Notes under the pieces: model-generated
Told to the model about the DNA's origin: nothing
Database searches by the model: none
Seen by the model: only the letters and a program-made list of their open reading frames with translations
Translations under genes and position numbers: made by a program
Source of the DNA: a virus
Taxonomy: Duplodnaviria; Heunggongvirae; Uroviricota; Caudoviricetes
Reading direction: 5' to 3' (one strand)
IMG/VR virus record: IMGVR_UViG_3300009285_000507
Coordinates: 32,749 to 96,748 of that record
Length of the DNA: 64,000 nt
Shown here: in pieces, positions 6,803 through 62,115 of the stretch
How the letters are laid out: the number at the start of each line of letters is the position of its first letter
Numbering within the stretch: position 1 is the first letter of the stretch

Positions 6803-6805
6803 GGT

Positions 6806-9518: not shown

Positions 9519-9523
9519 ATTAT

Positions 9524-9993: not shown

Positions 9994-10013
9994 AAGAATC
10001 TCCTAGTAAATTA

Positions 10014-10275: not shown

Positions 10276-10285
10276 ACTCTGTCTC

Positions 10286-10792
10286 CTAAGGTTCAAGTAC
10301 GACTTTAAATCTAACCAACGCCGCTTCAAGAGCAATCATCCCTTTGTTACCGAAGTAGGGGATCTTAGCCAGCTCTGCTCTCCCCAGTTTAACTGCATCA
10401 CCAATTGTGGCAATCCCTGACTTCATCAAACGTGACTTGTTCTGAGCATTAATATCAACAGCTGTAATGGGTGTAACCATAACATCAATCTCACCCTGCT
10501 CATTAGGAACGCTCTCCATAATGGCAATCTTCTGCCGCAATGAACTAACCTCTTCCTGGAGCTTCTCGTAGTTCTCCAGAACTGCTAGGCGTTCCTTAAT
10601 ACGCGTCTCAACACTGTTCATGCGCTCGCCACTACGCTCGCTAAGCATGACACTGCTACCAAGCTTCATCTGATGTTCCTTGAAGTACCCAGAGTTTCGC
10701 TGACTCAGAAGCCCTAGGTACATAAGCATTTCTGCTACATTAAGACCAACCAGCTTCTCAATGTCCATCTTGAACTCATAGTGAAATTTCAT
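10286..10792 (-). CDS. hypothetical protein (168 aa), first gene of minus-strand operon
   Basis: ORF starting 20 nt downstream of a TACAAT -10 element on the minus strand; coiled-coil-like middle section. Confidence 0.5.
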   Translation of the reverse strand: MKFHYEFKMDIEKLVGLNVAEMLMYLGLLSQRNSGYFKEHQMKLGSSVMLSERSGERMNSVETRIKERLAVLENYEKLQEEVSSLRQKIAIMESVPNEQGEIDVMVTPITAVDINAQNKSRLMKSGIATIGDAVKLGRAELAKIPYFGNKGMIALEAALVRFKVVLEP

Positions 10793-27902: not shown

Positions 27903-27912
27903 GAGAATATAA

Positions 27913-30309: not shown

Positions 30310-30449
30310 TTATATGCGCTCCATAGGTGATATAACTCTGTCAGACACTAAGAGTGTTGATGGTCTGTTATAGTGGAGAACACACCACCTTATATAGTTG
30401 GTGAGATGGTGAGCACAGTAATAGAAGTGATAGCGGAGGTAAAACAATA

Positions 30450-39567: not shown

Positions 39568-39958
39568 TAGCGAAGACCTTTCCTATCTGAAGAACCTTAT
39601 TCAAACAAATGAATCCTTCGTCCTAGATAATCTTAACTTATTCAAGACAGAGGATTTGTGTGTCCTTCAGGAGGCACTATTCCTATCCCACTTTAGGGAG
39701 TACTCCAAGGACAAACCATTCTTCCGTAACTTCCAGAGAGTGTTGTCTGGAAGCCTGCAGGAAGAGAGCATGAACAAGATAGTGTCTAGCGCAATGACAC
39801 ATCTGTTTATTGAATTTGAGAAGCTGGGAAATGTTAAGTCTATCTTCCAACGGTTTAATAATATACTCAGAAAAGTATGTGAGCAATCAGATTATGCATT
39901 TGCAATCGAAGGAATGAAATACATTTTAGGACTAGAGGTAACCAATAATGAGCGATAA
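39464..39958 (+). CDS. hypothetical protein (ORF overlaps 3' end of portal gene; true start probably internal)
   Basis: 164-aa ORF overlapping the portal gene by about 100 nt in another frame. Downstream in-frame Met codons exist. Confidence 0.3.
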   Translation: MKTKVRASMTSRKLESLYEFQIVKERVKRYKAKSSSEDLSYLKNLIQTNESFVLDNLNLFKTEDLCVLQEALFLSHFREYSKDKPFFRNFQRVLSGSLQEESMNKIVSSAMTHLFIEFEKLGNVKSIFQRFNNILRKVCEQSDYAFAIEGMKYILGLEVTNNER

Positions 39959-43112: not shown

Positions 43113-43838
43113 ATGCTACTAAGCTATATAGTAGACTATTTAGATAATTACTTTCAACCGATTCCTACAATTGAACCTGGGACACCAGAGAGTTGTGTAG
43201 CCCATGCTTTAGATTATTTTAACTGTGAGTGTGGCGAGACACGCTGTGATGAGATCAGCCCAACAATAGGGCAGAACAGATCTGCTGTTATTGATATGAC
43301 AGATCTTAATGCTATCTCAGTTGTAGATGTTATTCCTCGTGTACCTAACATGGTCAGTGAAGTTGGCAGCGTTGACAGTATCACTGACCTTATTCTTTTA
43401 AACTGGACAGATAAGATGCTGACTGGTGGTGGCGGTCAGTACCGTGATATGCAGCAGCTAATCCTTACAAGACAGTTTCTGGCCCAGTATCGTCAGTACT
43501 TTGGGCTCAGGTTTGACTGGAGATTCTTCCAGGAGATTGGCAGACTAACAGTAAACCAGATGCCTTATGGCGCAGTGTCATTGTTTGTTACATACAAGAG
43601 AGAGATCCCTGCTCATCCATTCTCACCTAATTATCGTTTGCAGGATAGGTTTGCATTCCGTTGGATCAAAGAGTACTCACTAGCTTTGTTCCAGTTGAGG
43701 CAGGGCGAAATACTATCCAAGGCAACAGCGGTAGGTCTTGATGTACAGGGTGCAAGCATTAAGCAAGAAGGTCTAGCAAGTAAGGAACGCTTGGAGCAGC
43801 AGTTGGCTAAGGCCATTCCAATGCCTTCTATTAGGTAG
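43113..43838 (+). CDS. hypothetical structural protein (241 aa)
   Basis: ORF directly after the capsid terminator. Confidence 0.45.
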   Translation: MLLSYIVDYLDNYFQPIPTIEPGTPESCVAHALDYFNCECGETRCDEISPTIGQNRSAVIDMTDLNAISVVDVIPRVPNMVSEVGSVDSITDLILLNWTDKMLTGGGGQYRDMQQLILTRQFLAQYRQYFGLRFDWRFFQEIGRLTVNQMPYGAVSLFVTYKREIPAHPFSPNYRLQDRFAFRWIKEYSLALFQLRQGEILSKATAVGLDVQGASIKQEGLASKERLEQQLAKAIPMPSIR

Positions 43839-44121: not shown

Positions 44122-44976
44122 ATGTCTATTGAATTCAAGGGTTTAGAGTTCGTTGATGCCAAGGTTATCAAGAACAGTGACGGGACTATCTATGCCCCTA
44201 TCTGTAATACCTGTCGTCTAATCTCAGGCATCAGCAACAGTGTGCTCCTAGCTTTCAAGGAAGATGATGAACGCATTGACAAGTGCTCCGTTGACGGGTG
44301 CGATGGCTATGCTACGTCACTAGTAAATATTCCACCAGATACCATCAAGGGTATGCCAGACGGTATCAAGGTATCAACTGTGGAGAACTTTGAAGAGGAA
44401 CTCGATGACGAGTTTTATACTGCTATGTTTGAAGATAAGGATGATAATGATGACAAAGAAAAAGAAGGTAGTGACTCAGAAGATTTCAACAAAGAAACCA
44501 AAGAAGACTCAGAAGACGCTGATGACGAAGATAAAGATGACCGCCATGGAGATTCTGAACCTGATGAAGCTTCGGACAAAAAGAAAGTCCTTGAAGAAAG
44601 ATGGGAAGAAATCCTAGATCTTATCGAAGAGAAGGCTGATGAGCTCGCAGTTAACCTGCGCTCGAAGGCTGAAGAGATGCGCCAGATCATGCAGGAGTCA
44701 GAGAAGGAAGGCGAGGATATCATTGAGGAGATCCTTGCTCGCATTAAGGCAATTGATGTTAGCGACCTACCTCCTATCATTGAGGATCTCGAAACCGATC
44801 TTAACAAGGAAGTTAGGGCTGCAGAGAAGGACGCTGAAGAAGAGGGTACTGAAGACGAGAAGGAAGAGCTTGATGAGCTGGGTAACAACAACGATGTAAC
44901 CCAGGATGAAGCCATTCATACCCCTGATGAAGATAACCTTGATGACATTATCTCCCGTATCAAGAAGGGTCAGTAG
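44122..44976 (+). CDS. highly acidic protein (284 aa)
   Basis: Globular N-terminal 100 aa with Cys pairs, then long D/E/K low complexity (EDKDDNDDKEKEGSDSEDF...DADDEDKDD). Confidence 0.5.
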   Translation: MSIEFKGLEFVDAKVIKNSDGTIYAPICNTCRLISGISNSVLLAFKEDDERIDKCSVDGCDGYATSLVNIPPDTIKGMPDGIKVSTVENFEEELDDEFYTAMFEDKDDNDDKEKEGSDSEDFNKETKEDSEDADDEDKDDRHGDSEPDEASDKKKVLEERWEEILDLIEEKADELAVNLRSKAEEMRQIMQESEKEGEDIIEEILARIKAIDVSDLPPIIEDLETDLNKEVRAAEKDAEEEGTEDEKEELDELGNNNDVTQDEAIHTPDEDNLDDIISRIKKGQ

Positions 44977-44981
44977 TATAT

Positions 44982-45326
44982 ATGGCTCAGCCACAGGTTC
45001 AAGTAGTTCCCATTGACCAGCTCCAGAGTCTTCTGGGGCATGGTCAGCAGCAGTTCCCTCAGGATATAATGGATCAGGATATGGCAATGATGGGTGGTGC
45101 AGATGGTGTGCAGCCTATCATCATTGTTGTCAATGTATCCAACAGCACAGCATCAATCAAGGATCCAGCCATGCTGCAGATGGCTCAGGCTATGGGAATG
45201 GATGCTATGCCAGCTGCTGTAGATGTGGTTGATGATGAGAGCTGTGGTGAGGATCAAGGTATCCCAGTTAACATCGGTGGGGTCATGGTAACTGTTCCAA
45301 GTGATCTAGGTCTAAAGACGGTTTAG
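44982..45326 (+). CDS. hypothetical Met/Gln-rich protein (114 aa)
   Basis: ORF with start directly after the previous stop. Confidence 0.4.
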   Translation: MAQPQVQVVPIDQLQSLLGHGQQQFPQDIMDQDMAMMGGADGVQPIIIVVNVSNSTASIKDPAMLQMAQAMGMDAMPAAVDVVDDESCGEDQGIPVNIGGVMVTVPSDLGLKTV

Positions 45327-45336
45327 TTATATACTT
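45324..45336 (+). promoter_or_regulatory. late-promoter-like motif variant TAGTTATATACTT
   Basis: 30 nt upstream of the ATG at 45367. Confidence 0.25.
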
Positions 45337-45366
45337 CTGTAAGTAAGTATACTAAGAGGTACTTAA

Positions 45367-48300
45367 ATGTCTGAAACAAAAGATACTACAATTGCGCTTG
45401 AGGCAGCTCCTGGACTTTTTGAGTACAAGAAGTCTGTCATCTCCAATCTACTAAAGGATTTAGACTCAAGTGCCCTAGCCAAAGTAAGTGATAAGATCCT
45501 AGGTGCAGACCGTGTTGCTCGCTATGGCAAAGACAAGAACAAGCTAACAGCAGACATTGCAGCTTCAGTCATTGATGATCAGTCCTACAGCGAAGTATCC
45601 AATGCCCTTGTTGAAGCTGGGGTTCCAAAGGAGTACTTTGACTTCATTAATATCTCAACAGCCAAAGCCCAGGAGATCCCTGACCTGGTTAAGAAGCTGG
45701 CCATACTTAAGAAGCAGGTAAGAGATGCAGCCAGTTTGATCAGTGACGACAACCAGCTAGCTGAGCTGGCTGGCATTGTTGGCAATGCATCAGTAGCTGA
45801 TAAGATTGCGTTGAAGGGCAGGGAAGCACTGCTTGATTATATTCGTGATGAGATCGGCATTGAGAGGGTTGGAGAGGGCAAGACAGTTGCAGGTAAGCTC
45901 AATGCTTTCAAGTCAATTCTGAAATCACGGTATGGTCAGGACTTTGGTGCACTAAGACCTGAACCATCAGAGTCCAGTATTACAACAGCTAATGTATATC
46001 TAAATGATATTGAGCGCAACGAGTACTTCACCAAGCGTTTGCTTGATGCTATTGATACAAAGAACAACGACTACTACAAATACATTGATATCTATAAGAA
46101 GGGTAAGGAAGATAAGAAAGCAGCCAAGACAAAGGTCAAGGAGAAAGGTACATCACAGAAGCAGATTGATGACACCAGAACCCTTGAGGATCTTTATGTT
46201 GCTCAGCAGGCAGCTATTGAGACAGGTGAGAACCTTGATCCCAATGCTGACAAGACTGGGGCACAGAAGATCTCTGCATCAAGTGGTGACTTCTATACTC
46301 TTAACTGGAGATCATATAGTAAGAAGGTTGGTCGCCAGAGTCCAGTAACAACCCTCCACTTTGTGTACAAGTACTCAAAGGATGATGCTGTCAGCTCACG
46401 AGCTGGCGATAAGCTGTTTGATACCTACGAGGGAATGGACGCACAGAAGCTGTGGGATGCTTACGAGCAGGCTAACACTGAGCAGACCACCAATCGTGGT
46501 GTGGTTAAAGAACAGGTAGACCTGTTACATACATACAAAGATATTATCATTAGCCATAAAGAAGTTGATCAGAAGTTCATAGCCGCACTAAAGGTTTCTA
46601 TCCGGAAGCTTGCTGCAGCCAACAATGCTTTGTTAGAGTCAAGCATGAAAGTGTTTGAGATTGTCAGACAGATCTCCATGCGTATGGCTGTTGCTGCCCC
46701 TGGAACCTTTCCTATTCGCTGGTCAGCTGATGGTAAGAACCTTGAGTTGTCAGTTCCAAAGCAGGCTGGCGAGAAGGAAGATGAGTACCAGAAGCGTAAG
46801 AACACAGCATCACCAAAGGAAGTATTTGACTTCTTCAAGGATAAGTCTGTGGCTTCAAGCTTCCTTAACTATGACCAGAGCTTGTGCTTGAGTGATATGC
46901 AGGTTGCCACCAAGGCATTTGTTGAGGGTGACAAGAATGCACAGAAAGCATTTGAGATTCCCAATGAATCCTTTGGTGAGAGCGAAGAACTACTAGCCAC
47001 CAAGAAGGGCGTAGCTAAACACTTTGTCTCGTCAATCGGCAAGAAGATTGCCACTGACTTCAGCAATGCAGTCATCTCAAAGAACTCTGGTAAGATCCTC
47101 AGTATTGAGTTCAGCATTGGTGACAAGGTTCCAGATACCAAGAACCCAGCCAAAGCAAATGTGATGAAAGAGTTCGTGCAGAAAGAGGGTAAGCAGGTTA
47201 GAGATGCAGTTCCTGTTGAGACCCATAATGTTATTCTACGCAATATGTCTTTGTATCTAGTTGGGTACTACAATGATATTGTACGCAAGTACTCCGACTA
47301 TACACCATTCAGTGTAAGCTTGGCTCAGCGTAACATTGCCAGTGCAGTGCAGTCATCCAAGTCTGGTTCTTCAGATGCTGCACAGGCAAGGAAGATGATC
47401 GTTGACAGCCTGAGGATCAAGGGCAAAGCAGCTGATGTCCTTGTTACTAAGCTGCGCTTCATCCGTAAGCCTGGAGCTTGGTCAGTTGTATATCTGACTG
47501 ATAACAACACTGTTGTTGGTGTGCATGATGCCACATATAGCATCAGCGCAGTGTACACATGGTTCACCTGTATGGAAGCGTACATGCAGGGCAAGCCACT
47601 TAAGTACGAGAGTGTCAGCATCTTTGCTGAAGCCCGTGCCAAAGTAAAGAAGGATGTAGCTGATGATGTGCTAGACATGGGCGCAGACTTTAACACTGCT
47701 CTTAACAACCTACGCACAGCTAAGGATCAGTTCGTACAGGATGCCAATGAGATCCGTGATGCATACAGAAGGTTCGAGAGCACCCTTGACTACGAGCGTG
47801 TAGCCAATGCAACACTTGCAGCTGAGAAGGAATCATCAAAGGGTGCTGATATCAATGATGCTTTCAAGGATGCATTTAAGACAGCAGCAGGCACAGGAAC
47901 AAAATACCTAGGTGTATCTGAAACACCTGCAGGTGACGTGTACATCAGCGATATCTTCCCTGTGCTTGGCAAGTCTATGAAGAAAGATTTCTTTGTCTTT
48001 GACACACCAGAGGGCACAGTTAACCTTCTTGAGTATGGTCAGCCATATAGAGATTTCAGAAGCTCATTGAAGAACTTCCAGTTCACAACTGATGGTAAGA
48101 AGGAAACTGGTGAGCTACAGACTCAGACAGTTGTACAGGCTGCGGAACAGATTGATGCAGTGATTAGTGATTATCTAAAACGTGTAGGTAAGAAGGCCAG
48201 GGTTGCTACTTCCAAGGAAGAAGCCCGTCTGCTTGATCTACTCAACCAGCAGCTCGCTGGCTTGACTGGCCCAAAGAAGATGGACAACGCAATCAAGTTC

Positions 48301-49383
48301 TTCCTTGAGCTATCCTCTTCAACCTACGAGAGACTGTACCGTGTAACCAATCGCCTGTTAAGATCATTTGAAGTACTCTACAAGGAAGTAGAAAACATTA
48401 ACAAGATGGTATCAGACAAGCAGGTAGAGACCGAGAAGACCTTTGACTATGAGTATCTAAAGAGTGCATTGTCAAGTGGTGTTGAGGCCGATGAACTTCT
48501 TGCGTACAATTGGGGAGCAACTGAGGAAGTACCGTCAGGCACAACCCCCACTCTTACAGAGGAACTAAAGAAGGAGTTTATTATAGATGTTAGTAAGCTA
48601 CCTAGCTTTGACCTTACCTCGAGAGGGTTGCTTGAGAAGAGCCTGAAGGATCTAGGTCGTGTAGTTAACAGCTTCTTGTGGCAGACCAACGTAAACTACA
48701 AGAAGACTGGTGATGATACAGAGGAACCATTCAGTTATGTTGGTGATGTAAAGGGCAAAGAAGTTGACAACAAAGGCAACGTACTAACCACAGATGCACA
48801 AGGTAACCCAGTTCAGGCTGGGCACTTATCTGCTATGTTCGGACCAAGCAGATCACAGGCGACATTACGAGGAGAGAGCAAGATGAAGAAAGCAACAGAA
48901 GAGTTCAGCGGCATTGGCGGTTCACAGAGTATGGATTCTCCAGCAGGTGAGGTAGAGTCAAGCTTGGCTATGGATGTGCCTGCAGTTCCAGAGAGCGCAC
49001 CATCAGATGAGTTTGACAGCATGGACATTGGTGAGGATGCTTGGGATGAAGCTGGCTCAGCAGCCGACAAGCTTGCCGAAGTTGACACCAAGATCTCTGA
49101 GGCAGAGGCAGCTGGTGCAGATGCAGCTGACATTGCCAAGATGAAAGAGAAGCGTGATGGTCTTGCTGAAGATCTTGATGCACTGATCAGTGACGCAGAG
49201 GAAGCCACTGCAGATGCAGAGTCAGACAATGAAGAGGATGTTGACACTGACGTTGCTGATGCAGACACTGATGAACTAGAAGTGGAAGAGCCAGCTAAGG
49301 ATGAGCCAAAGAAGGAAGAGAGCTGCCAGGTTTGTAATGAGTCAGTTATCTTCCGTGCACTACAGTACAATACACGTCGGTAG
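45367..49383 (+). CDS. very large virion-associated protein (1338 aa), possibly an internal/ejection protein
   Basis: Single uninterrupted 4-kb ORF in the structural block. Mostly helical composition. Acidic D/E-rich C-terminal 150 aa. No catalytic motif recognised. Confidence 0.5.
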   Translation: MSETKDTTIALEAAPGLFEYKKSVISNLLKDLDSSALAKVSDKILGADRVARYGKDKNKLTADIAASVIDDQSYSEVSNALVEAGVPKEYFDFINISTAKAQEIPDLVKKLAILKKQVRDAASLISDDNQLAELAGIVGNASVADKIALKGREALLDYIRDEIGIERVGEGKTVAGKLNAFKSILKSRYGQDFGALRPEPSESSITTANVYLNDIERNEYFTKRLLDAIDTKNNDYYKYIDIYKKGKEDKKAAKTKVKEKGTSQKQIDDTRTLEDLYVAQQAAIETGENLDPNADKTGAQKISASSGDFYTLNWRSYSKKVGRQSPVTTLHFVYKYSKDDAVSSRAGDKLFDTYEGMDAQKLWDAYEQANTEQTTNRGVVKEQVDLLHTYKDIIISHKEVDQKFIAALKVSIRKLAAANNALLESSMKVFEIVRQISMRMAVAAPGTFPIRWSADGKNLELSVPKQAGEKEDEYQKRKNTASPKEVFDFFKDKSVASSFLNYDQSLCLSDMQVATKAFVEGDKNAQKAFEIPNESFGESEELLATKKGVAKHFVSSIGKKIATDFSNAVISKNSGKILSIEFSIGDKVPDTKNPAKANVMKEFVQKEGKQVRDAVPVETHNVILRNMSLYLVGYYNDIVRKYSDYTPFSVSLAQRNIASAVQSSKSGSSDAAQARKMIVDSLRIKGKAADVLVTKLRFIRKPGAWSVVYLTDNNTVVGVHDATYSISAVYTWFTCMEAYMQGKPLKYESVSIFAEARAKVKKDVADDVLDMGADFNTALNNLRTAKDQFVQDANEIRDAYRRFESTLDYERVANATLAAEKESSKGADINDAFKDAFKTAAGTGTKYLGVSETPAGDVYISDIFPVLGKSMKKDFFVFDTPEGTVNLLEYGQPYRDFRSSLKNFQFTTDGKKETGELQTQTVVQAAEQIDAVISDYLKRVGKKARVATSKEEARLLDLLNQQLAGLTGPKKMDNAIKFFLELSSSTYERLYRVTNRLLRSFEVLYKEVENINKMVSDKQVETEKTFDYEYLKSALSSGVEADELLAYNWGATEEVPSGTTPTLTEELKKEFIIDVSKLPSFDLTSRGLLEKSLKDLGRVVNSFLWQTNVNYKKTGDDTEEPFSYVGDVKGKEVDNKGNVLTTDAQGNPVQAGHLSAMFGPSRSQATLRGESKMKKATEEFSGIGGSQSMDSPAGEVESSLAMDVPAVPESAPSDEFDSMDIGEDAWDEAGSAADKLAEVDTKISEAEAAGADAADIAKMKEKRDGLAEDLDALISDAEEATADAESDNEEDVDTDVADADTDELEVEEPAKDEPKKEESCQVCNESVIFRALQYNTRR

Positions 49384-49395
49384 ATAGGTGTACAA

Positions 49396-50385
49396 ATGGG
49401 ACACAGTGCTATGCAAAGCTTAGTGCAGGACTTCAAGGTAGCTTGTGATGCACTTGAGGATTCAGGTACCAAAGAACTTCTACGTGCTGATGCTGACAAG
49501 ATCAGTGGGCACGTAGAAGGTGTGCTTCTTTGTGGGTACGCCTCTGAGTCAATTCGCTCAGAGGGTATCCGTGCAATTCTAGAGTGCGCATCAGATGCAC
49601 GGGACAGGGTTTCCAAGTTGTCATGCCCAGGTATCATGGATGTTATCTCTGTGCTTGAGAGTATCAATGATGCAGTGCTGATGGAAGCTGACTATAAGAG
49701 ACAGCGGTTTGCTGAAGTCCTTGGCAAGCTGCGTAACATTGTTGTGTCCTATGAATCATTGAAGGACGGGGTTGAAGACCCTGAGCTTATCAATGCCATT
49801 GATACCATGGTAGCACAGCTGGACTCCGCACTGCTTGATACTAACACAGCTATCAAGTCAGCCGCTACGGATGCTGAAGCCCTAACCAAGCTCAATGAGT
49901 TGTACACCACGTTCTCTAAGGTTACCCTACCTGAGAATGTAGCAGCCTTGATGTCATCCAAGCCAGAGTTTTCAGGCGTTCTCAAGTCAGCACTGGCAGA
50001 CATCCAGGCAAGTCTAACAGCTCTTGGCCAGGAACCAGTAAGCAACAAGGATGTCAAGAGCGTAGATGAGCCAGTGGCTACTGACAGGCTAAAGGGTGCA
50101 CTCAAGGCAGCTAAGGAGCTGTGCATTAGTATAGCCAGGAAGTACTCTGACAACGAAAGAATAGATGAGTTAAACAAAGAGATGTTCGGCTACATCCAGA
50201 AGCTTGAGAACGGCGATGATAACGCTGTGGACTTCATCCTAAGACTGGCTGATGCCATTCAAAAGAATGCTGCTGATGAGGACAAGAGCTTCATCAACAG
50301 CAAGATGATTGAGCTCAACAGAGTATCCAAGAAGTTTATTAAACAGCAGGGTCCAGCTAACAGCACACCAACTGCTAAAGGTTAG
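49396..50385 (+). CDS. hypothetical structural protein (329 aa)
   Basis: ORF directly after the giant gene. Confidence 0.45.
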   Translation: MGHSAMQSLVQDFKVACDALEDSGTKELLRADADKISGHVEGVLLCGYASESIRSEGIRAILECASDARDRVSKLSCPGIMDVISVLESINDAVLMEADYKRQRFAEVLGKLRNIVVSYESLKDGVEDPELINAIDTMVAQLDSALLDTNTAIKSAATDAEALTKLNELYTTFSKVTLPENVAALMSSKPEFSGVLKSALADIQASLTALGQEPVSNKDVKSVDEPVATDRLKGALKAAKELCISIARKYSDNERIDELNKEMFGYIQKLENGDDNAVDFILRLADAIQKNAADEDKSFINSKMIELNRVSKKFIKQQGPANSTPTAKG

Positions 50386-50393
50386 GTAGATAG

Positions 50394-51773
50394 ATGCGGC
50401 CTTTGGAGTTAGCAATAGAGTTCCCAGATACTAATAATAAAGAAGTGAAAGCTGCGCAGGATTCCCTTGAGAAATCTGCTGAGGATCTTCTGTCCTCAGC
50501 TCAAGCTGCGTCTACCAAGATATTAGATAAGATCCCTGAGGAATCAATACCCGACATTGAAGATGACTTCGAAGCATTGACTAATGTTGTTGGCAGTATC
50601 TTTGATTGGATCGGTAACGAAGACTGGGCTGACGATGTAGACGCAGAGGATGATGAGCACAATAAGACTGTGGAAGCTGAGTACGTAAAGGGAGTTAAGA
50701 CTGGCATTGATAAACTGGCCAGCATTGTGGAATCAATACTAGCCACCATTCGTTCAGAGGGTATTGAAGAGCCACTCTTTGATGATCTCATTGATAGTAC
50801 GCTGGCTCTATCTGGTTCATTATCTAAAGCTGGATTCAATACCCTACCCATAACCAGGAGACTGGTTGGTATTACCGAGACAACTGCTGACAAGCCTGCT
50901 GAGGATGTACCAGATGAAGCACCAGCTGAGGAACCTGTCGCACCCCCAGAGGACACAAGTTCATATGAGAAGCCTGTAGAGAAGCCTACTGCCAAGGGTG
51001 ACGTGCATACCCTTAACATGCAGAAGGAAGCTCTGCTTAACTATCTTGAGTCAGGCATCTCTGAGTCAAAGCTTAGGGCATTCCTTGCCGCCTTTACTGG
51101 TGAGAAGGAAGAAGACATTGAAGGTAATGAGGAGTCAGTGCTCAGAGAAGTTATGAATAGCATTGAAACCTTTGAGGATGTGGAGACAGCTGTGTACATT
51201 ATCAACACAGCATCTGGTACTAAGTACACCATCAATGATCTACTTGAGGCTGCAGCTGAAGACCAGGGTGAGGAAGATGTCAACGTACCTGATGAGGATG
51301 GCGAGGAAGCTGAGCCAGAGTCCGAGGTAGACGTTGAAGAACCTAGTGCTCCAGTTGAGGAGCCAGCTGAAGCCGACAAAGAACCTATTGAAGCTGATGT
51401 CACACCAGAGGATAAGCTAGTACTGCTTCAGGAACAGATAGACTTTGGTGTGGAACTTCTAGATAGGATACAACCTAATGGCAAGTCAGCACTGGTTAAC
51501 ACCAAGACAAGCACCAGTACACCACTGGGAAGCGGTGAGATATTCCTGCTTAAGAATAACTTTAGTGCCATTGACCTGTCTGAGTTCAAGGATGTCATTG
51601 ACTTAAGTAAAGATGACATGGCAATGAATAAGCTCTACAGGGCTATCATGCTTGTTGGATCACTGTCTGATCCCAAGATAGTTAAGTCACCAGATCTAAC
51701 AGATGAGGATAGAGTAAAGGCTAAGTCAGCTTACACTGCAGCTGTTCTTGTGTACACCACCTTAAAAAAGTAA
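50394..51773 (+). CDS. acidic Pro/Glu-rich protein (459 aa)
   Basis: Long PEDT/E-rich segments (VPDEAPAEEPVAPPEDTSSYEKP). Confidence 0.45.
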   Translation: MRPLELAIEFPDTNNKEVKAAQDSLEKSAEDLLSSAQAASTKILDKIPEESIPDIEDDFEALTNVVGSIFDWIGNEDWADDVDAEDDEHNKTVEAEYVKGVKTGIDKLASIVESILATIRSEGIEEPLFDDLIDSTLALSGSLSKAGFNTLPITRRLVGITETTADKPAEDVPDEAPAEEPVAPPEDTSSYEKPVEKPTAKGDVHTLNMQKEALLNYLESGISESKLRAFLAAFTGEKEEDIEGNEESVLREVMNSIETFEDVETAVYIINTASGTKYTINDLLEAAAEDQGEEDVNVPDEDGEEAEPESEVDVEEPSAPVEEPAEADKEPIEADVTPEDKLVLLQEQIDFGVELLDRIQPNGKSALVNTKTSTSTPLGSGEIFLLKNNFSAIDLSEFKDVIDLSKDDMAMNKLYRAIMLVGSLSDPKIVKSPDLTDEDRVKAKSAYTAAVLVYTTLKK

Positions 51774-51790
51774 TCTCCTAGTAGTATAAT
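51762..51790 (+). promoter_or_regulatory. candidate promoter (TTAAAA-N17-TAGTATAAT)
   Basis: TATAAT at 51785-51790. GAGGAG Shine-Dalgarno. ATG at 51813. Confidence 0.4.
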
Positions 51791-51812: not shown

Positions 51813-52025
51813 ATGCAAGCTACGTTCTGTGATGACTGTGGTAAACTAATAGAAAACCCTGACAGGGGTAGTGTAGAAGTAGCAGTACAGCGTACAACAT
51901 TCCACCAGAAACTAAATGAAGAGAAGTTCATAGTGTGCCTTCAGTGTGGTGATAAAGTGTCCAAGCATTGGCTAAAGACCAGATCCAAGAATATGTTGCA
52001 GATTAAGAAGGAGCACAAAAAGTGA
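51813..52025 (+). CDS. zinc-ribbon protein (70 aa)
   Basis: CDDCGK...CLQCGDK. Confidence 0.4.
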   Translation: MQATFCDDCGKLIENPDRGSVEVAVQRTTFHQKLNEEKFIVCLQCGDKVSKHWLKTRSKNMLQIKKEHKK

Positions 52026-52753
52026 AGACCTTTTTACATTCAGGAGACATGGGGGACATTGTATATGCGCTTCCAACGATACGCGCAATGGGTGGTGGAG
52101 TACTGTATCTGGATACTAGCGGGGGTGGAAACGATCCGTTTGTTAACCGGCAGCTTGGATCTGGGTGGCACCTTAAGTTCAATGACACTTGTTATAACTT
52201 CCTTAAGCCGCTGATTGAAGCTCAGCCTTACATACATGGCGTAGAGAAGTATGTATCACAGAAGATCAATGTAAATCTAAATGGCTTTAGAACAAGGCTT
52301 AGGGCAGATAATCAAGAGAACCTAGCTCAGTCCCATCTTAAGTACTTCAATCTAGATCTATCTGATAAAGAGATTATACCTTGGATTGAGGTTCCTGATA
52401 GTGGTAGAGCTCCTGTCAGAGAGATAGTTGTTAACAGAAGTCTTAGATATCACACAGCCTATATCATGTGGGTAACCCTTGCTGGTATGTGTAGGGACAA
52501 GGCAGAGTTCGTAGGCACACCGTTTGAGCACGAGGTGTTCAGTAAGACCTTTGAGATTGACATCCCCTATTACCCCTGTGAGAACGCATTGGTGCTAGCT
52601 CAGAGGCTCAAGGACGCACGATATTTCATTGGTAACCAAAGTATGCCTATGTCAGTTCGCATCGGCCTAGGGCTTCCCTTTGCGCAGGAATCGTATATCA
52701 AGTGTCCCAACTGCATCTTTGATGGTATCTCAGGCCGCTACACATTTAACTAG
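52022..52753 (+). CDS. GT9-like glycosyltransferase (heptosyltransferase-like), 243 aa
   Basis: N-terminal HSGDMGDIVYALPTIRA resembles the GT9 SxGDxxxxxPxxxxL motif. C-terminal FIGNQSMPMSVRIGLGLP resembles GT9 GNDSGPMHLAAALGTP. Shorter than canonical GT9 enzymes. Confidence 0.45.
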   Translation: MKTFLHSGDMGDIVYALPTIRAMGGGVLYLDTSGGGNDPFVNRQLGSGWHLKFNDTCYNFLKPLIEAQPYIHGVEKYVSQKINVNLNGFRTRLRADNQENLAQSHLKYFNLDLSDKEIIPWIEVPDSGRAPVREIVVNRSLRYHTAYIMWVTLAGMCRDKAEFVGTPFEHEVFSKTFEIDIPYYPCENALVLAQRLKDARYFIGNQSMPMSVRIGLGLPFAQESYIKCPNCIFDGISGRYTFN

Positions 52754-52761
52754 GAGATTAC

Positions 52762-53427
52762 ATGAATACCGTATTGCTTACAGGTTACAGGGAAGACTTT
52801 GCATGGATGGGTGCACGTACCAAGCAGGGTAAAGAATGGTACGCTGAGAAGTACGGGCTATCATTTAAGTGTAACGTTGACTACCCAGAAGAGTTTGGTC
52901 TGCCATCTTGGCAGAAGCTACGTTTAATCAAGGAACTGTTTCAGCAAGGGTATGATGCTGTACTATGGCTTGATGCTGATGCAGTTATAACTAATCAGTT
53001 CATTGACATCATGACTCTGATTAAGACCCTGCATAACATTGACGGTCAGAAATGCTTGTATGCATCTACTGACTGGGGTAACCATCCTATTGACCAGCCC
53101 TACAGTAACTTCTCTATGGGTAACTTTGTGTGGATGAATACCACTAGAGGTAATGAACTGCTGGACCTTGCTAGCTCTTTGCTTAAGTACTCACGTGCAG
53201 TCTATGAGCAGGATCAAGGTGCAGTAAGGGAAGTGCTCAAGACTGTGCCACACACAAGGTACTATATTAATATTCTAAATCGTCGTATCCTAAATGCTGT
53301 GCCAGCTTTTGTTCAACCATTGGCTTTGGATCCATGGGCTGAGGGTGACTTCCTTGCACACCTTACTTCAGTGGACAAGGACTTAAGGGTTGCGGCACTG
53401 AGCAGACTGAACGTGCACAATGAGTAA
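52762..53427 (+). CDS. GT-A fold nucleotide-sugar transferase with DxD motif
   Basis: YDAVLWLDADAVI is a classic DxD in GT-A context. Length 221 aa. Confidence 0.5.
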   Translation: MNTVLLTGYREDFAWMGARTKQGKEWYAEKYGLSFKCNVDYPEEFGLPSWQKLRLIKELFQQGYDAVLWLDADAVITNQFIDIMTLIKTLHNIDGQKCLYASTDWGNHPIDQPYSNFSMGNFVWMNTTRGNELLDLASSLLKYSRAVYEQDQGAVREVLKTVPHTRYYINILNRRILNAVPAFVQPLALDPWAEGDFLAHLTSVDKDLRVAALSRLNVHNE

Positions 53428-54043
53428 CATTAACTTTGCTGAGCTAGGTGTGACAGACTTCGACATTGGTATGTCAATTGACACGAGGCATTTAGAGTGG
53501 ATGCACTACGTGTTGAGCAACCCTGTTGGTGGGCCATGGCTATCATCATTGGAGTCTGGCTCGTGGAAGGGTGTGTCGAGCTCTGTGTTCGTTGATGCAG
53601 CCAACAAGGGGCATATCCTTAGAGCTATGTTCGCTGACATTAACTTTCAGCCACAGGCAATAAAGGTTATTGGTGGGCATGAGATCTTCCATGGTAAGGG
53701 TGCTGATGCCATACGTATCAACCCACCCTTTGATGTTGTGTTCCTGGACAGCGACCATCGCCTTGCTCCAACCCAGGAGGAGTGGAAAGCTATCATAGCT
53801 AAGCCAGAACTACCTAGGCTATTGGTAGCTCATGACACCAACTCGGTTAACCTAAAGCTCGGTGGTTGCGAAGGACCAGCATGGTTGTACAACGTTATAG
53901 TTAATGACCCAAGTTATTACTGGGTACATGATTGTGAACAGCGGGACAACGAGAGAACAGATCGTGGTCTGTTCATGGCTACAAAGGATGAGAACATACT
54001 AGAGGTAATCATGGAGGGGTACAGAGCCACATGCTTTGCATAA
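53420..54043 (+). CDS. class I SAM-dependent methyltransferase (O-methyltransferase-like)
   Basis: SLESGSWKGVSSSVFVD is motif-I-like. FDVVFLDSDH resembles the D-x-V-F-I-D-A-D-K/H segment of CmcI/TylF-type O-methyltransferases. Confidence 0.45.
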   Translation: MSNINFAELGVTDFDIGMSIDTRHLEWMHYVLSNPVGGPWLSSLESGSWKGVSSSVFVDAANKGHILRAMFADINFQPQAIKVIGGHEIFHGKGADAIRINPPFDVVFLDSDHRLAPTQEEWKAIIAKPELPRLLVAHDTNSVNLKLGGCEGPAWLYNVIVNDPSYYWVHDCEQRDNERTDRGLFMATKDENILEVIMEGYRATCFA

Positions 54044-54747
54044 CATTCACTGCATTCAACAGAGTTGATTACTTTGTTGAGACTATGAATTCCTGGGCAG
54101 CAGTTAACAATCTTGATAAGGTAAAGATGATATTCAATATAGAGAAGACTGACAAGCTCAAGGAGATGATTGCTGTCCTTGATTCGTTCTGTCATAACTC
54201 TTCAGTGGGTGATGTAACAATCAATGTTAATGAGGGAGTCATTGGTTGTGCAAAGAACAGCTGGAATGCTTTGGAGCGTGGGTTTGAACATTCAGATAGT
54301 GTAGTACTGGCAGAGGAAGACTTCATTGTATCTAATGATATCATTGATATGTTCACTGCAGCTGATAAGTTGTTCAAGGATCAGAAGGATGTGATGGTTG
54401 TCAGTGGTAGGAATGAAACGGTGCAAGAGGATAACCCATATGCATTTAGAAAATTAGGATTGCTAACCTGCTGGGTATGGATGACATGGAAGGACAGATG
54501 GAATACGTATCTGCGTAACACATGGGACTTTGATTACTCAAGTGGTAAGGCTACAGGAACTCCAGGTGGTTGGGACTGGAACATACGAAGGATCATTGAG
54601 AGGAACAATATGTTCAATGTTGTTCCTGGTCACTCACGTAGTAACCATATAGGTATCAATGGTATACACAGTAATGCAAAGTCATTCACAACTAATGCCA
54701 CGTTTAAACCAGTGTTTGAGCTAAAGGAGTTCACGTATGAAGCATAG
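54031..54747 (+). CDS. GT2-like (GT-A fold) glycosyltransferase
   Basis: N-terminal ITFTAFNRVDYFVETMNS follows the GT2 opening pattern. Acidic EED at LAEEDFIV sits in the DxD position. Confidence 0.4.
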   Translation: MLCITFTAFNRVDYFVETMNSWAAVNNLDKVKMIFNIEKTDKLKEMIAVLDSFCHNSSVGDVTINVNEGVIGCAKNSWNALERGFEHSDSVVLAEEDFIVSNDIIDMFTAADKLFKDQKDVMVVSGRNETVQEDNPYAFRKLGLLTCWVWMTWKDRWNTYLRNTWDFDYSSGKATGTPGGWDWNIRRIIERNNMFNVVPGHSRSNHIGINGIHSNAKSFTTNATFKPVFELKEFTYEA

Positions 54748-55333
54748 TGTTGTTGGTAATTCAGGTAGGCTTGACTTCCTTGGGTACCCAATGTCACAGA
54801 ACGAGTATGCTCTTGAGGCTTTTGATATGCTCTTCAAGACTGTGAAGCCAGCTCGTGTCATTGAGCTAGGTGCTCTCAATGGTGGGCTCACTACATTCCT
54901 TGGTTTATACAGCCTAACAGCAGGTTGCTCTGTAATCTCCTACGACATTGCTAACTCATTGTTTGACAAGTCAGTACTGGATAAGCTCGGTGTTGATATG
55001 CGGTTCAAGGATATCTTTGCAAGTGATACACTAAAAGAGATCTCTGATATGATCAGGCAGGATGGCATCACAGTTCTACTATGCGACAATGGTAACAAGA
55101 TTGGTGAGTTCAATCACTTCTCCCAATTCCTTAAGGTTGGGGATATTATTATGGCTCATGACTATGCACCTGATATGACATTCTTTAATAAGGAGATGCG
55201 TGGTAAGGTGTGGCCTTGCTGCGAGATTACAGAGAATCATATAGAGGAATGTAGCCGGAGATACCTACTACGACCACTGCTTGCTGATCCATTCCTCCAG
55301 GCTGCATGGGTGTGTAAAGTTAAAGTAGCTTAG
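54737..55333 (+). CDS. class I SAM-dependent methyltransferase
   Basis: VIELGALNGGLTTFL is motif I. ITVLLCDNGNK is post-I acidic. Length 198 aa. Confidence 0.45.
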   Translation: MKHSVVGNSGRLDFLGYPMSQNEYALEAFDMLFKTVKPARVIELGALNGGLTTFLGLYSLTAGCSVISYDIANSLFDKSVLDKLGVDMRFKDIFASDTLKEISDMIRQDGITVLLCDNGNKIGEFNHFSQFLKVGDIIMAHDYAPDMTFFNKEMRGKVWPCCEITENHIEECSRRYLLRPLLADPFLQAAWVCKVKVA

Positions 55334-55392
55334 TAACTATTTTCTTATACACTACTGCGTGACATCTAAGGCTAGTACCTATTAAATTTAGA

Positions 55393-55408
55393 TATCACAG
55401 TGACGGAA
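55393..55408. promoter_or_regulatory. operator-like site TATCACAGTGACGGAA (copy 1)
   Basis: Contains the palindrome TCAC-A-GTGA. Identical 16-mer 85 bp downstream. Confidence 0.45.
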
Positions 55409-55477: not shown

Positions 55478-55493
55478 TATCACAGTGACGGAA
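55478..55493. promoter_or_regulatory. operator-like site TATCACAGTGACGGAA (copy 2)
   Basis: Identical to copy 1; 35 nt upstream of the ATG at 55528. Confidence 0.45.
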
Positions 55494-55900: not shown

Positions 55901-55929
55901 TTGACATTTATAAACAACTGTAGTATAAT
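55901..55929 (+). promoter_or_regulatory. consensus sigma-70-type promoter TTGACA-N17-TATAAT
   Basis: Perfect hexamers with 17-bp spacer. 27 nt upstream of the ATG at 55956, with GGAAAGGAGA as Shine-Dalgarno. Confidence 0.65.
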
Positions 55930-58573: not shown

Positions 58574-59083
58574 ATGGACTTTGAGAGTTTTGTAATCAAG
58601 TTCTTTGTCTACGGTTTTGGAACGCCCGTCGCTGGGCTGCTAGGTTACTGGGCATATGATAAGCACATCGCTACTCTATCTGGTGAGGAGCGTACTGATC
58701 TAATCAACAAGGCTGTGCTTGGGTTGATCAGTGTTGGCACTAAGGTTGGCTTGGTTAAGAAGACTGATAGCCTGCAGAAGATCATTGATAAGTATAGTGT
58801 TAACAAGTATCGTCAGAAGAGAGAAGAGCTTAAAAAGAATGGTGTTAACTGTGAGCACTTGGACTTCTTAAGTAGGGTGGTGAGAATTGAGAAAAATCTT
58901 AATCAAATTCACCACCACCCATCATACAAGGAACGTGTAGCTGATATCAGAAGGAGAGAGCTGGCTTCTGGAAGAAGGCAGTCAGGGCTTACACCATCTC
59001 TTTATGCACAGCTATATGATATGAGCAGTGATCCAAGTAACATTGAGTGTACTCATGTTGTGACTAAGAAGGTAGCAAAATGA
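58574..59083 (+). CDS. hypothetical protein with N-terminal TM segment (169 aa)
   Basis: FVYGFGTPVAGLLGYWAY hydrophobic N-terminus. Confidence 0.4.
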   Translation: MDFESFVIKFFVYGFGTPVAGLLGYWAYDKHIATLSGEERTDLINKAVLGLISVGTKVGLVKKTDSLQKIIDKYSVNKYRQKREELKKNGVNCEHLDFLSRVVRIEKNLNQIHHHPSYKERVADIRRRELASGRRQSGLTPSLYAQLYDMSSDPSNIECTHVVTKKVAK

Positions 59084-59118
59084 TATCACCCCGCAAGAGG
59101 GTAATAAAAGGAGAGGCA

Positions 59119-59904
59119 ATGGACTTTGTTAATTGGAAGGTTGTTGTAGGTGGTGTGTTGGTTGTTCTAGTTCTATGTGCTATCAGTGGTACGTTCGGTA
59201 TTGTAGGGGCTGGTGAGCGTGGTGTTACTACTACGTTCGGTGCAGTGTCCTCAGACGTAAAGGGTGAAGGTCTATACATTAAGATCCCGTTCGTGCAGGA
59301 AGTTATCATTGCTGACGTTCGTGTTCAGAAGAAGCAGACTGAAGCCTCTGCAGCATCCAAGGATCTTCAGATAGTGCATAGTGTTGTGGCTCTTAACTTT
59401 AACATTAAGCCTGAGGCAGTGGCAACTATCTACCAGCAGTTCGGTGTTGACTTCAAGGATCGTATGATTGACCCTGCCCTGCAGGAATCAGTGAAGTCAG
59501 TGACAGCACGTTATACAGCAGAGGAACTGGTTACCAAGCGTGAAGAGGTGCGCGAGGCTATCAAGGTTCTACTGCGTGAGAAGCTTGCCCCCATGGGTAT
59601 TGTAGTGGACGAGCTTAACATTGTTAACTTCGACTTCTCTCCCAGCTTCAATGCTGCCGTTGAGGCCAAGGTTACAGCAGAGCAGAATGCTCTAGCAGCA
59701 GAGAACAAGCTAGCGCAGGTTAGGTTTGAAGCTGATCAGGCCATTGCTGAAGCCAAGGGTAAGGCTGAGGCTATCCGTCTTACTGCCCAGGCCCTGGCTC
59801 AGAGCCCACAGGTTCTTCAGCTGCGTTGGATTGAGAGATGGAATGGTGCAATGCCTACCACGGTTCTAGGAAACAACACTACAGCAATGATTCAGGTTCC
59901 TTAA
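59119..59904 (+). CDS. SPFH/Band-7 (prohibitin/HflKC-like) domain protein
   Basis: N-terminal TM (VVVGGVLVVLVLCAISG). GERGVTTTFGAV...GEGLYIKIPFVQEV matches the SPFH core. Ala/Glu-rich coiled-coil tail. Start taken at MDFVNW (the track ORF starts at 59080). Confidence 0.65.
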   Translation: MDFVNWKVVVGGVLVVLVLCAISGTFGIVGAGERGVTTTFGAVSSDVKGEGLYIKIPFVQEVIIADVRVQKKQTEASAASKDLQIVHSVVALNFNIKPEAVATIYQQFGVDFKDRMIDPALQESVKSVTARYTAEELVTKREEVREAIKVLLREKLAPMGIVVDELNIVNFDFSPSFNAAVEAKVTAEQNALAAENKLAQVRFEADQAIAEAKGKAEAIRLTAQALAQSPQVLQLRWIERWNGAMPTTVLGNNTTAMIQVP

Positions 59905-60115: not shown

Positions 60116-60670
60116 ATGAGACGTAATCCAATAAAGCTAGGGGACGGTGATGAGCTCCTAGCTGGTACCAACCACCTGTCCTTCATTGATAGGACATATG
60201 AGATCAAGGGTAACACAAAGCATTGGCAGTTCGTCACAAGGCGTACTGGTGTCAACGCTGTAATGATTGTGGCTACCATAGGTGACAACATTATTATCAC
60301 TAGGGAGTACAGGGCACCTCTTGGCGGCTACGAGTGGGGGTTCCCTGCAGGGCTCATAGATGATGGGGAGAGCGTTGAGGACGCAGCATACAGGGAGATC
60401 AAGGAAGAGACAGGGTTTTCACTCTTCGGTATAAATCGTGTAAGTCCTTTTGTGTATAACTCAGCTGGCCTTACAGATGAAGCTATAGCCATTGTATACT
60501 GTGAGGCACGTGGTGGTGTAGGAGAACCTGACCTACAGGACTCAGAGGACATAACTACTTATGTAGCAACTCGAGCAGAGGTTTCAGATCTACTTAAGGA
60601 TAGCAGTGCAATGATCAGTGCAAAGGCATGGATCATACTAGAACGGTTCGCTAGGGAGGGTAAGGTTTAA
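60116..60670 (+). CDS. Nudix hydrolase
   Basis: Nudix box GFPAGLIDDGESVEDAAYREIKEETGF (Gx5Ex7REUxEExGU). Length 184 aa. AAGGAG Shine-Dalgarno. Confidence 0.75.
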   Translation: MRRNPIKLGDGDELLAGTNHLSFIDRTYEIKGNTKHWQFVTRRTGVNAVMIVATIGDNIIITREYRAPLGGYEWGFPAGLIDDGESVEDAAYREIKEETGFSLFGINRVSPFVYNSAGLTDEAIAIVYCEARGGVGEPDLQDSEDITTYVATRAEVSDLLKDSSAMISAKAWIILERFAREGKV

Positions 60671-61704: not shown

Positions 61705-62115
61705 ATGTCCATTGTATCTAACGTTATAAGTACAGTAAACAACTATATAGAGTATACTGTTGAGAGAGTTACAGAAGCCGCTTTTGTCGGAGTATCCATG
61801 CTTACGCAAGCTCTAGGACCAAATACTAACAGAAGATACAGCCAGGAGTTCTGGAATAGTTGGTTGGAAGATGTTGTATCTGTCCAGCCTATGGATCGTA
61901 CTACTGGTCAGGTCTTCTGGATGGACTATAGGTATGGGTCTGATGATACTTACCTTGGTCAGCAGGGTAGCTTTCTCAATATATGGAATGGTCACACAAT
62001 GCAGCGTGTGTTCATCAATAAGATTGTTGGTGAGGATATAAAGTATAGGATTATAAGGCTTAATGAGTACGTGAACAAAGAGGATATGAGTAAGTACACT
62101 AAGCAGTTGAGGTAA
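61705..62115 (+). CDS. small protein sharing the N-terminal capsid motif and the C-terminal VNKEDM family motif (136 aa)
   Basis: VSVQPMDRTTGQVFWMDYRY matches VSVQPMDRKTGQVFWLDYQY in the 41553 gene. C-terminus RLNEYVNKEDMSKY. Confidence 0.45.
   Translation: MSIVSNVISTVNNYIEYTVERVTEAAFVGVSMLTQALGPNTNRRYSQEFWNSWLEDVVSVQPMDRTTGQVFWMDYRYGSDDTYLGQQGSFLNIWNGHTMQRVFINKIVGEDIKYRIIRLNEYVNKEDMSKYTKQLR

Follow-up and report, generated by a model that had tools for sequence, protein, structure and literature searches.

A coupled glycosyltransferase and methyltransferase cassette at the end of the head genes in an uncultured groundwater phage

We analysed a 64,000-nucleotide (nt) stretch of DNA from a virus of the Caudoviricetes (positions 32,749 to 96,748 of IMG/VR record IMGVR_UViG_3300009285_000507; hereafter the window, meaning the stretch at its full length) and describe in it a cassette of six genes, p0 to p5, at 51813-55333. 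Its most likely product is a short O-methylated glycan, assembled with nucleotide sugars of the host. An earlier note on this DNA, made from the letters alone, had read p1-p5 as a pathway for a methylated oligosaccharide, and that reading is a reasonable one, partly supported here. In the profile and structure searches that the note had named beforehand as the refuting test, no open reading frame (ORF) among p1-p5 proved to be something other than a glycosyltransferase or methyltransferase. As acceptor we tentatively propose the phage's own virion proteins; the evidence for this choice, and for the alternatives to it, is weighed below.

Organization of the cassette

The genes of the cassette are as follows (aa, amino acids; SAM, S-adenosylmethionine):

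51813-52025, + strand: p0, a 70-aa basic zinc-ribbon protein (CxxC...CxxC)
52022-52753, + strand: p1, 243 aa, GTG start, GT9-like GT-B transferase
52762-53427, + strand: p2, 221 aa, GT34-type GT-A transferase
53420-54043, + strand: p3, 207 aa, candidate class I SAM methyltransferase
54031-54747, + strand: p4, 238 aa, GT13-type GT-A transferase
54737-55333, + strand: p5, 198 aa, CmcI-like methyltransferase

The five consecutive, coupled + strand genes of the earlier note were borne out at exact coordinates, the calls for p1-p5 being identical between a mechanical ORF list and independent callers on public contigs. Its gene count left out p0, which is annotated as a gene on all public contigs; since p0 overlaps the start of p1 by 4 nt (GTGA), the coupled block consists of six genes. 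An 8-nt gap separates p1 from p2, with a Shine-Dalgarno sequence (TAGGAG) straddling the p1 stop, and the remaining junctions are overlaps of 8 nt (p2/p3), 13 nt (p3/p4) and 11 nt (p4/p5). For p0, the only NCBIfam match was a weak one to a TraR-type C4 zinc finger (E 0.0028, far under the cut-off). The base composition of the cassette matches that of the neighbouring sequence. Hydropathy stays below transmembrane strength throughout the six proteins (19-residue maximum 1.28), and all six products are predicted to be soluble and cytoplasmic.

Four kinds of site flank the cassette:

51762-51790, + strand: weak sigma-70-like site, TTAAAA-17-TATAAT, 10/12 matches, in the 39-nt gap ahead of the cassette
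55341-55352, + strand: motif copy TTNCTTATACAY, 8 nt past the p5 stop
55393-55408 and 55478-55493, + strand: two exact copies of the 16-mer TATCACAGTGACGGAA, 85 nt apart and the only 2 exact copies in 64 kb
55901-55929, + strand: perfect sigma-70 consensus, TTGACA-17-TATAAT, 12/12 matches, heading a run of small genes

The downstream boundary drawn by the earlier note, an operator-repeat region and a consensus promoter, is therefore present in both its parts, the repeat pair (55393, 55478) and the promoter. Each copy of TATCACAGTGACGGAA includes the 9-nt palindrome TCACAGTGA; the pair lies outside the cassette, just upstream of a 119-aa ORF at 55528, and its copies look like candidate operator or protein-binding sites. 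Upstream, the site at 51762-51790 may be a promoter; sigma-70-like sites in the region are no commoner than in shuffles, and it is a candidate only.

A second motif, TTACTTATACAT, bears on transcription of the cassette. With up to 2 mismatches it occurs 14 times in total, a modest excess over the 8.7 copies in shuffles. The three exact copies (36842, 56776 and 57771) are all intergenic; further sites lie on the + strand at 32258, 35021, 41432 and 55341 and on the − strand at 2549 and 4608. Most copies fall in intergenic gaps and are oriented to the next gene, with a few weak matches within ORFs; one site is upstream of the major capsid gene (41432) and another upstream of an amidase gene. On this pattern TTACTTATACAT is a candidate phage-specific promoter, and the copy at 55341 would start the next transcription unit. 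No + strand copy occurs between 41432 and 55341, that is, between the capsid-gene site and the end of p5, which suggests that the cassette is co-transcribed with the head genes. The T4 late-promoter motif TATAAATA is absent in the cassette region.

A compact GT9-like family

Judged by its predicted structure, p1 is a compact GT9-like transferase of the GT-B fold and represents an undescribed, mainly phage-borne family for which Pfam has no model. An AlphaFold model computed with an alignment of homologues (predicted local distance difference test, pLDDT, 95.1; predicted template modelling score 0.92) has a GT-B fold nearest to solved GT9 structures, while other GT-B folds match clearly less well; the nearest folds include the lipopolysaccharide (LPS) heptosyltransferases WaaC and WaaF. 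Sequence comparison gave no significant match. Neither Pfam (PF01075 included) nor PHROG nor NCBIfam matched p1 (at E ≤ 1 for Pfam and NCBIfam), a profile of 44 family sequences reached WaaF in the PDB at E 2.1 only and no GT9 chain significantly, and the WaaC and WaaF proteins of E. coli were matched by hhalign with probabilities of 4-11%. Because these comparisons are non-significant, we assign p1 to GT9 by fold only; the GT9-like call of the earlier note thus holds for the structure and finds no significant counterpart in the sequence. Despite its non-significant score, hhalign puts the C-terminal domains of p1 and GT9 in the correct register.

In an alignment made by eye, the invariant D12 of p1, within its N-terminal HSGDMGD, resembles the SSMGD of WaaC, whose aspartate (Asp13) is the proposed catalytic base. 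The GT9 donor-site aspartate (N/V-D-S/T-G; NDSG) is aligned by hhalign to a glutamine in p1 (GNQS), so an ADP-heptose donor should not be assumed. The protein is also short: CAZy GT9 enzymes, which include WaaC, WaaF and the protein heptosyltransferases TibC/Aah, have 320-380 aa as compared to 243 aa in p1.

Homologues of p1 formed 46 clusters among 5.8 billion proteins, and none of the 46 carries a Pfam domain. An alignment-based scan found the family at 139 IMG/VR loci versus 19 loci across 185,579 bacterial and archaeal species genomes (one genome per species). Most of the 19 cellular loci (L101-L119) belong to Planctomycetota (Phycisphaerae; Tepidisphaerales and Phycisphaerales) and related metagenome-assembled genomes (MAGs), a concentration that gives a weak hint on the host range of the family. 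The bacterial contexts are heterogeneous and were read with a simple ORF caller that is unreliable in high-G+C MAGs. One apparent 675-aa fusion met there includes a LysR regulator and was rejected as a probable product of faulty ORF calling.

For the viral neighbourhoods, ORFs were called in 74 loci, two neighbours per side were clustered, and the 20 largest clusters were annotated with Pfam. The commonest neighbour is a GT4 glycosyltransferase (37/74 loci), followed by a PD-(D/E)XK nuclease (22), GT2 (12), Methyltransf_11/Methyltransf_23 (9), and DUF5672 and GDP-mannose 4,6-dehydratase (5 loci each). At one locus (L001) the homologue lies between two ORFs that we read by eye as methyltransferases, directly upstream of a terminase and a portal gene likewise identified by eye. 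The nearest homologue (P0002, 62% identity) is surrounded by PglD-like, DegT-like and GT4 genes, and another (P0043) lies on a phage-like contig together with a nucleoside diphosphate (NDP)-sugar epimerase, a methyltransferase and a faint GT2 match.

Structural searches of BFVD added further viral relatives. The top match of p1 is A0A6J5NY32, a 467-aa uncultured-phage protein named 'Methyltransferase FkbM' (TM-score 0.83, 26% identity); its name and its length, nearly twice that of p1, suggest a fusion between a methyltransferase and a p1-like domain. Further matches from phages carry the names GT9, RfaF and Aah/TibC, and p1-like folds occur in giant viruses as well (Klosneuvirus, Pithovirus and PBCV-1 Q89398).

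Two GT-A transferases

From its profile matches, p2 is a GT-A enzyme of the GT34 or nucleotide-diphospho-sugar-transferase type. It scored 37.1 bits against Pfam PF05637 (Glyco_transf_34; cut-off 23), residues 20-202 aligning with profile positions 28-229 of 238, and 26.4 bits against PF03407 (Nucleotid_trans; cut-off 22); the first of these scores upholds the GT-A transferase with a DxD motif that the earlier note had named. The motif, D71-A-D73, lies within WLDADAV and is presumably equivalent to the DxD of GT34, as seen in XXT2. GT34 enzymes lengthen mannan or galactomannan-type chains.

The protein p4 had been called GT2-like, an assignment that we replace: the profile of its family indicates a GT13-like (GnT-I/POMGnT1) GT-A enzyme, not GT2. 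The family is large, with 1049 representative relatives at E ≤ 1e-3. A 66-sequence profile aligned over positions 4-222 with the POMGnT1 catalytic domain (5ggf; E 2.1e-17), and it also matched GnT-I (E 1.5e-11) and MGAT2 (E 1.9e-5). Among the 66 members, 37 match Pfam GNT-I (PF03071) and 20 match GT2-type models (13 Glyco_tranf_2_3, 7 Glycos_transf_2); p4 on its own stays under the GNT-I cut-off (22.8 vs 25.4 bits). Its acidic metal-binding motif is E95-E96-D97, with E95 nearly invariant and D97 invariant in the family. The likeness to GT13 thus comprises a nearly full-length match to the POMGnT1 catalytic domain, a counterpart of the E-D-D metal site and a C-terminal SRS-H-G motif, whereas p4 differs in being a bare 238-aa catalytic domain of a prokaryotic virus with EED for EDD. 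POMGnT1 and GnT-I extend protein-linked glycans, in which the structurally characterised GT13 enzymes lengthen mannose. The occurrence of p4 shows that enzymes of the GnT-I/POMGnT1 type circulate in phages.

A tblastn search of GenBank phages (50,697 records, the set used throughout) found a single relative of p4, namely gp8, a glycosyltransferase encoded by Microbacterium phage Magritte (30% identity). The gene for gp8 neighbours a UDP-glucose dehydrogenase and another glycosyltransferase gene, just upstream of the terminase and portal genes.

Methyltransferase candidates

The two candidates differ in how well they can be placed. By its family, p5 is a class I SAM methyltransferase like CmcI and the rhamnosyl O-methyltransferases. 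The protein itself scored 24.2 bits against Pfam FtsJ (cut-off 24.1) and 18.8 bits against RMNT_CmcI (PF04989; cut-off 23.2). Its 38 relatives (32-47% identity) often carry PF04989, many of these at 35-45% identity, or are named cephalosporin hydroxylase, the family profile matches CmcI (2bm8) at E 4.7e-5 over the N-terminal half only, and the SAM motif I (E43-x-G45...G49-G50) is invariant in the family, so that the CmcI-type methyltransferase call holds at family level. CmcI-family enzymes include sugar O-methyltransferases, and p5 is probably one of them, to judge from these matches.

Pfam points, less firmly, to p3 being probably an orphan class I SAM methyltransferase of the Methyltransf_24 type. 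The match to PF13578 (Methyltransf_24) covers profile positions 1-93 of 105 at E 5e-4 and 21.3 bits, under the cut-off of 26.3, and class I motifs were recognised by eye (LESGSWKGVSS, FDVVFLDSDH, LLVAHD). Among 5.8 billion proteins p3 retrieved only itself, and IMG/VR held no homologue; the AlphaFold model, made from the single sequence, is unusable (pLDDT 35). The methyltransferase call of the earlier note therefore has the sub-threshold match on its side, and the lack of homologues and the poor model on the other. Single-sequence searches of the PDB for p1, p2, p3 and p5 gave chance-level matches only; the best for p3 (E 0.36) was an isoaspartate O-methyltransferase. A paralogous origin of p3 and p5 was considered and rejected; hhalign of p3 against the p5 family found no relation.

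Homologues of p5 also occur in glycosyltransferase islands of other phages, beside HtrL_YibB, PF11397, GT_PLOD and GT10 genes, and one adjoins capsid and tube genes. In three large uncultured phages (L009, L012 and L013, at about 2000-10300 in each) the islands have 6-8 genes, among them HtrL_YibB, PF11397 'GlcNAc', GT_PLOD, GT10 fucosyltransferase-like genes and unknowns, with a p5-type methyltransferase at the end or inside; L009 also has a T4 rIIB-like gene. These three islands have only the CmcI-like methyltransferase in common with the window. The picture is one of modular glycosyltransferase and methyltransferase cassettes with interchangeable parts, common in uncultured phages.

The phage and its structural block

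The genome of the phage is estimated at about 139.5 kb, as more than 20 assemblies, one of them labelled a groundwater metagenome, have the same sequence on contigs that measure 139.0-139.7 kb (JGI 3300025154 Ga0209417_1000254 is an example). These contigs begin at differing points, so the genome is probably circularly permuted. Its G+C content is 44%. Five assemblies were compared over the 3521-nt block 51813-55333 (L003, L015, L017, L018 and L019; JGI 3300025154 and ENA ERZ28563683, ERZ27254733, ERZ27254805 and ERZ909573) and showed 0 mismatches; the identity may reflect repeated assembly of a single site or, alternatively, a remarkably clonal phage population. The cassette had no megablast match among the GenBank phages, and no relatives of the phage were found in IMG/VR when sought through p2, p4, the capsid protein and a 1338-aa protein described below.

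The structural genes upstream of the cassette, all on its strand, include:

32704-35016, + strand: 770-aa protein with two GT4 (Glycos_transf_1) domains
37705-39567, same strand as the cassette: gp20-type portal
39948-41420, same strand as the cassette: T4-type prohead protease
41553-43034, same strand as the cassette: gp23-type major capsid protein
43113-43838, same strand, upstream of the cassette: gp13-like neck protein

The cassette shares the strand of the portal, protease and capsid genes and closes the head-gene block at its 3' end. The neck gene is separated from the cassette, over 44122-51773, by ORFs of 284, 1338, 329 and 459 aa, for which a virion role is an assumption. The earlier note had spoken of acidic virion proteins at this boundary. 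Acidity is confirmed for three of them (284 aa, isoelectric point (pI) 4.1; 329 aa, pI 4.8; 459 aa, pI 4.1), and virion status has no backing from Pfam or PHROG for the 1338-, 329- and 459-aa proteins, none of which matched either database. A tblastn search with the 1338-aa protein against the GenBank phages likewise found nothing. In one of the compared assemblies (L017) its gene is annotated as 1215 aa.

The structural block holds a second sugar locus, the 770-aa gene at 32704-35016, whose product matches PHROG 2170 (E 5e-57) and, in two stretches each, PF00534 (132 bits) and PF13692. Directly upstream of it, at 26835-32066, are three acidic proteins (pI 4.1-5.0) with 21-23% serine plus threonine; two of the three share similar C-termini (...VSFNASYDVTISVVG and ...NTVNCYVTVVG), and by their sequences the three look like tail fibres. 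The 770-aa double-GT4 protein may act on the same glycan as the cassette. Its class, GT4, is also the one most often encoded beside the p1 homologues of other phages.

Comparison with known systems

The remark in the earlier note that this gene combination is not routinely described was overstated. In the cluster O mycobacteriophage Corndog, gp35 is an O-methyltransferase and gp36-gp38 are glycosyltransferases, enzymes that are not themselves virion components (PMC4351075; for virion glycosylation in cluster O see also PMC11600133). As in the window, an O-methyltransferase gene and about three adjacent, co-oriented glycosyltransferase genes lie inside the virion structural operon. The likeness is one of arrangement: tblastn with p1, p2, p4 and p5 detected no homology to the enzymes of Corndog or of Che8 (cluster F) among the GenBank phages, Magritte gp8 being the only hit (with p4). 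The window encodes GT9-, GT34- and GT13-like enzymes, two methyltransferase candidates and a zinc-ribbon protein. Its phage, with a head module of the T4 type and a G+C content of 44%, is not an actinobacteriophage, and the capsid protein has no evident C-terminal acceptor tail.

The second precedent is the chlorovirus protein PBCV-1 A064R, which combines two rhamnosyltransferase domains with an O-2 methyltransferase and, like A111/114R, acts in building the capsid glycan (PMC7826918). PBCV-1 resembles the window in encoding soluble glycosyltransferases together with a sugar O-methyltransferase, and its glycan is placed on its own capsid without the host glycosylation machinery (PMC7826918); it differs as a eukaryotic giant virus with multidomain fusions where the window has separate, coupled genes. 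Islands of large aquatic phages and cyanomyoviruses also cluster several glycosyltransferase and sugar-modifying genes (PMC12801897; PMC12619734), although those that bear p5 homologues have only that CmcI-like methyltransferase in common with the cassette. Seroconverting systems of the Gtr type consist of membrane proteins (GtrA flippase, GtrB, GtrC-type), whereas the cassette has neither such Pfam matches nor predicted transmembrane segments.

The architecture of a glycosyltransferase and O-methyltransferase cassette within a virion operon is thus already known. What is new is the component families, namely a phage-enriched miniature GT9-like family that lacks a Pfam model, a GT13-type enzyme and the orphan p3, and the presence of such a cassette in a non-actinobacterial lineage with a T4-type head and no cultured relative.

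Proposed function and alternatives

Leloir enzymes of the GT-A and GT-B folds use nucleotide-sugar donors. In the mechanism that we propose, p1, p2 and p4 would add sugars stepwise from host nucleotide sugars, and one or both methyltransferases would cap hydroxyls of the glycan using SAM, yielding a short O-methylated heteroglycan. At least one virion protein of the phage itself would be the acceptor and would receive the glycan in the cytoplasm, at a late stage of assembly; the resulting coat would change how the virion adsorbs, how stable it is or how it is recognised. The analysis establishes the gene structure, the folds and families of p1, p2, p4 and p5, and that relatives of p1 and p5 recur in phage sugar islands; we infer that the five enzymes form one pathway, which donor sugars they use, that sugar and not protein is methylated, and what the acceptor is. 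The scanned ORFs of the window and its annotated flanks yielded no gene for nucleotide-sugar synthesis.

A virion acceptor is a plausible assignment, which we put forward tentatively. It is favoured by the position of the cassette, which ends the block of head genes on the same strand; by the TTACTTATACAT site upstream of the capsid gene, with the next + strand copy only past p5; by the second glycosyltransferase gene embedded among the structural genes; and by the precedents of the cluster O mycobacteriophages and PBCV-1 A064R. Several observations weigh against it. GT9 enzymes are best known from building the LPS core. The major capsid protein has no C-terminal extension rich in serine or threonine, and no acceptor signature was found. 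Transcription with the late genes is deduced from the motif alone, and the weak sigma-70-like site sits directly upstream of p0. The role of p3 as a methyltransferase is unconfirmed, given its sub-threshold PF13578 match, its lack of homologues and its model of pLDDT 35. The searches revealed no relationship to the glycosylation enzymes of mycobacteriophages, and about 45 kb of the phage genome lies outside the sequence inspected. Finally, glycosyltransferase islands in cyanophages are usually taken to remodel the host surface (PMC12801897). The fuller proposal, in which the cassette, with or without the 770-aa protein, glycosylates virion proteins of a non-actinobacterial phage with a T4-type head, using an O-methylated heteroglycan made by eukaryote-like GT13 and GT34 enzymes and by miniature GT9-like ones, is possible and in our judgement rather doubtful.

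As the main alternative, the same enzymes might remodel the host envelope, working at the cytoplasmic face on precursors (lipid-linked intermediates) of the LPS core, O-antigen, capsule or S-layer glycan; the phage would gain by blocking superinfection, by keeping its progeny from re-adsorbing to debris, or by redirecting sugar flux. We regard this explanation, and with it these benefits, as somewhat unlikely. Soluble transferases are normal in assembly linked to undecaprenyl diphosphate, the LPS heptosyltransferases WaaC and WaaF are among the nearest folds of p1, the bacterial homologues of p1 (mostly from Planctomycetota and related MAGs) lie near polysaccharide-type genes (DegT, PglD, GT2 and GT4), and the multi-glycosyltransferase islands of cyanomyoviruses have been interpreted in this way (PMC12801897). 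However, the cassette proteins include no flippase, polymerase, ligase, GtrA/B/C-type membrane component or transmembrane segment, and genes for nucleotide-sugar synthesis were not found in the window or flanks. The cassette stands at the end of the head block and not among the small genes behind the consensus promoter. Surface remodelling late in a lytic cycle would seem to bring little benefit, and viral contigs, with 139 loci, carry the p1 family far more often than the 185,579 bacterial species genomes, with 19 loci.

The genes might also have no common product. A mosaic of independently acquired accessory genes with different substrates, packed at an insertion-tolerant junction, would fit their unequal distributions (p3 an orphan, p4 with about 1049 relatives, p1 and p5 with about 40-46 clusters each), the other phage islands that have p5 only, or p1 only, in common with the cassette, and its place at the border of the structural block and the small-gene region. 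Overlaps of 4, 8, 13 and 11 nt nevertheless favour co-translation as a unit, every recognisable function is in glycan building or methylation, in many unrelated phages the homologues of p1 and p5 are again accompanied by glycosyltransferase and methyltransferase genes in combination, and the base composition is that of the neighbouring sequence, all of which makes a mosaic improbable. Least probable, and by a wide measure unlikely, is hypermodification of DNA, in which a sugar chain, perhaps methylated, would be placed on a modified phage base to evade restriction. Phage GT-A and GT-B enzymes can make di- and oligosaccharides on 5-hydroxymethylcytosine (bioRxiv 10.1101/2023.12.21.572611), and relevant genes could lie in the roughly 45 kb beyond the inspected sequence. 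But DNA-sugar transferases typically cluster with thymidylate-synthase-like (ThyS-like) hydroxymethylases, 5mYOX dioxygenases or C5-methyltransferases (bioRxiv 10.1101/2023.12.21.572611), and neither the Pfam-scanned ORFs of the window nor the annotated genes on about 10 kb of each flank included any of these. The best fold match of p1 is GT9 and not T4 beta-glucosyltransferase, p3 and p5 match O-methyltransferase-type families and not DNA methylases, and the cassette lies beside head genes rather than replication genes.

Demonstrated glycosylation of phage virions is, in the literature that we found, limited to actinobacteriophages, where it alters antibody recognition. If the cassette decorates the virions of an unrelated aquatic lineage, glycan coats would be suggested as a general phage strategy, with a bearing on adsorption, stability, recognition by predators or immune systems, and phage engineering. 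With at least 139 IMG/VR contigs carrying the p1 family, virion glycosylation would then be widespread in environmental phages and not peculiar to mycobacteriophages. If the acceptor is the host envelope, the cassette would be one more case of the surface remodelling already suspected in large aquatic phages. Whatever the acceptor, the p1 family (240 aa, far more frequent in viral contigs) and p4 are tractable targets for enzymology.

Other features of the window

A PADLOC scan returned no noteworthy match to a defence system. The window also encodes a family A DNA polymerase, a RecA/UvsX-like protein, a ligase and a clamp-loader-like ATPase, and the following features, which have no evident link to the cassette:

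5721-6461, − strand: RlaP-type nucleotidyltransferase
9445-9518 and 10014-10101, − strand: tRNA-Trp and tRNA-Tyr genes
59080-59904: SPFH/Band 7 protein
60116-60670: NUDIX hydrolase

In the small-gene region, a 136-aa ORF at 61705-62115, distant from the true capsid gene, gave a weak Pfam match to the N-terminal portion of the Gp23 major capsid protein (E 1.4e-4, residues 55-83).

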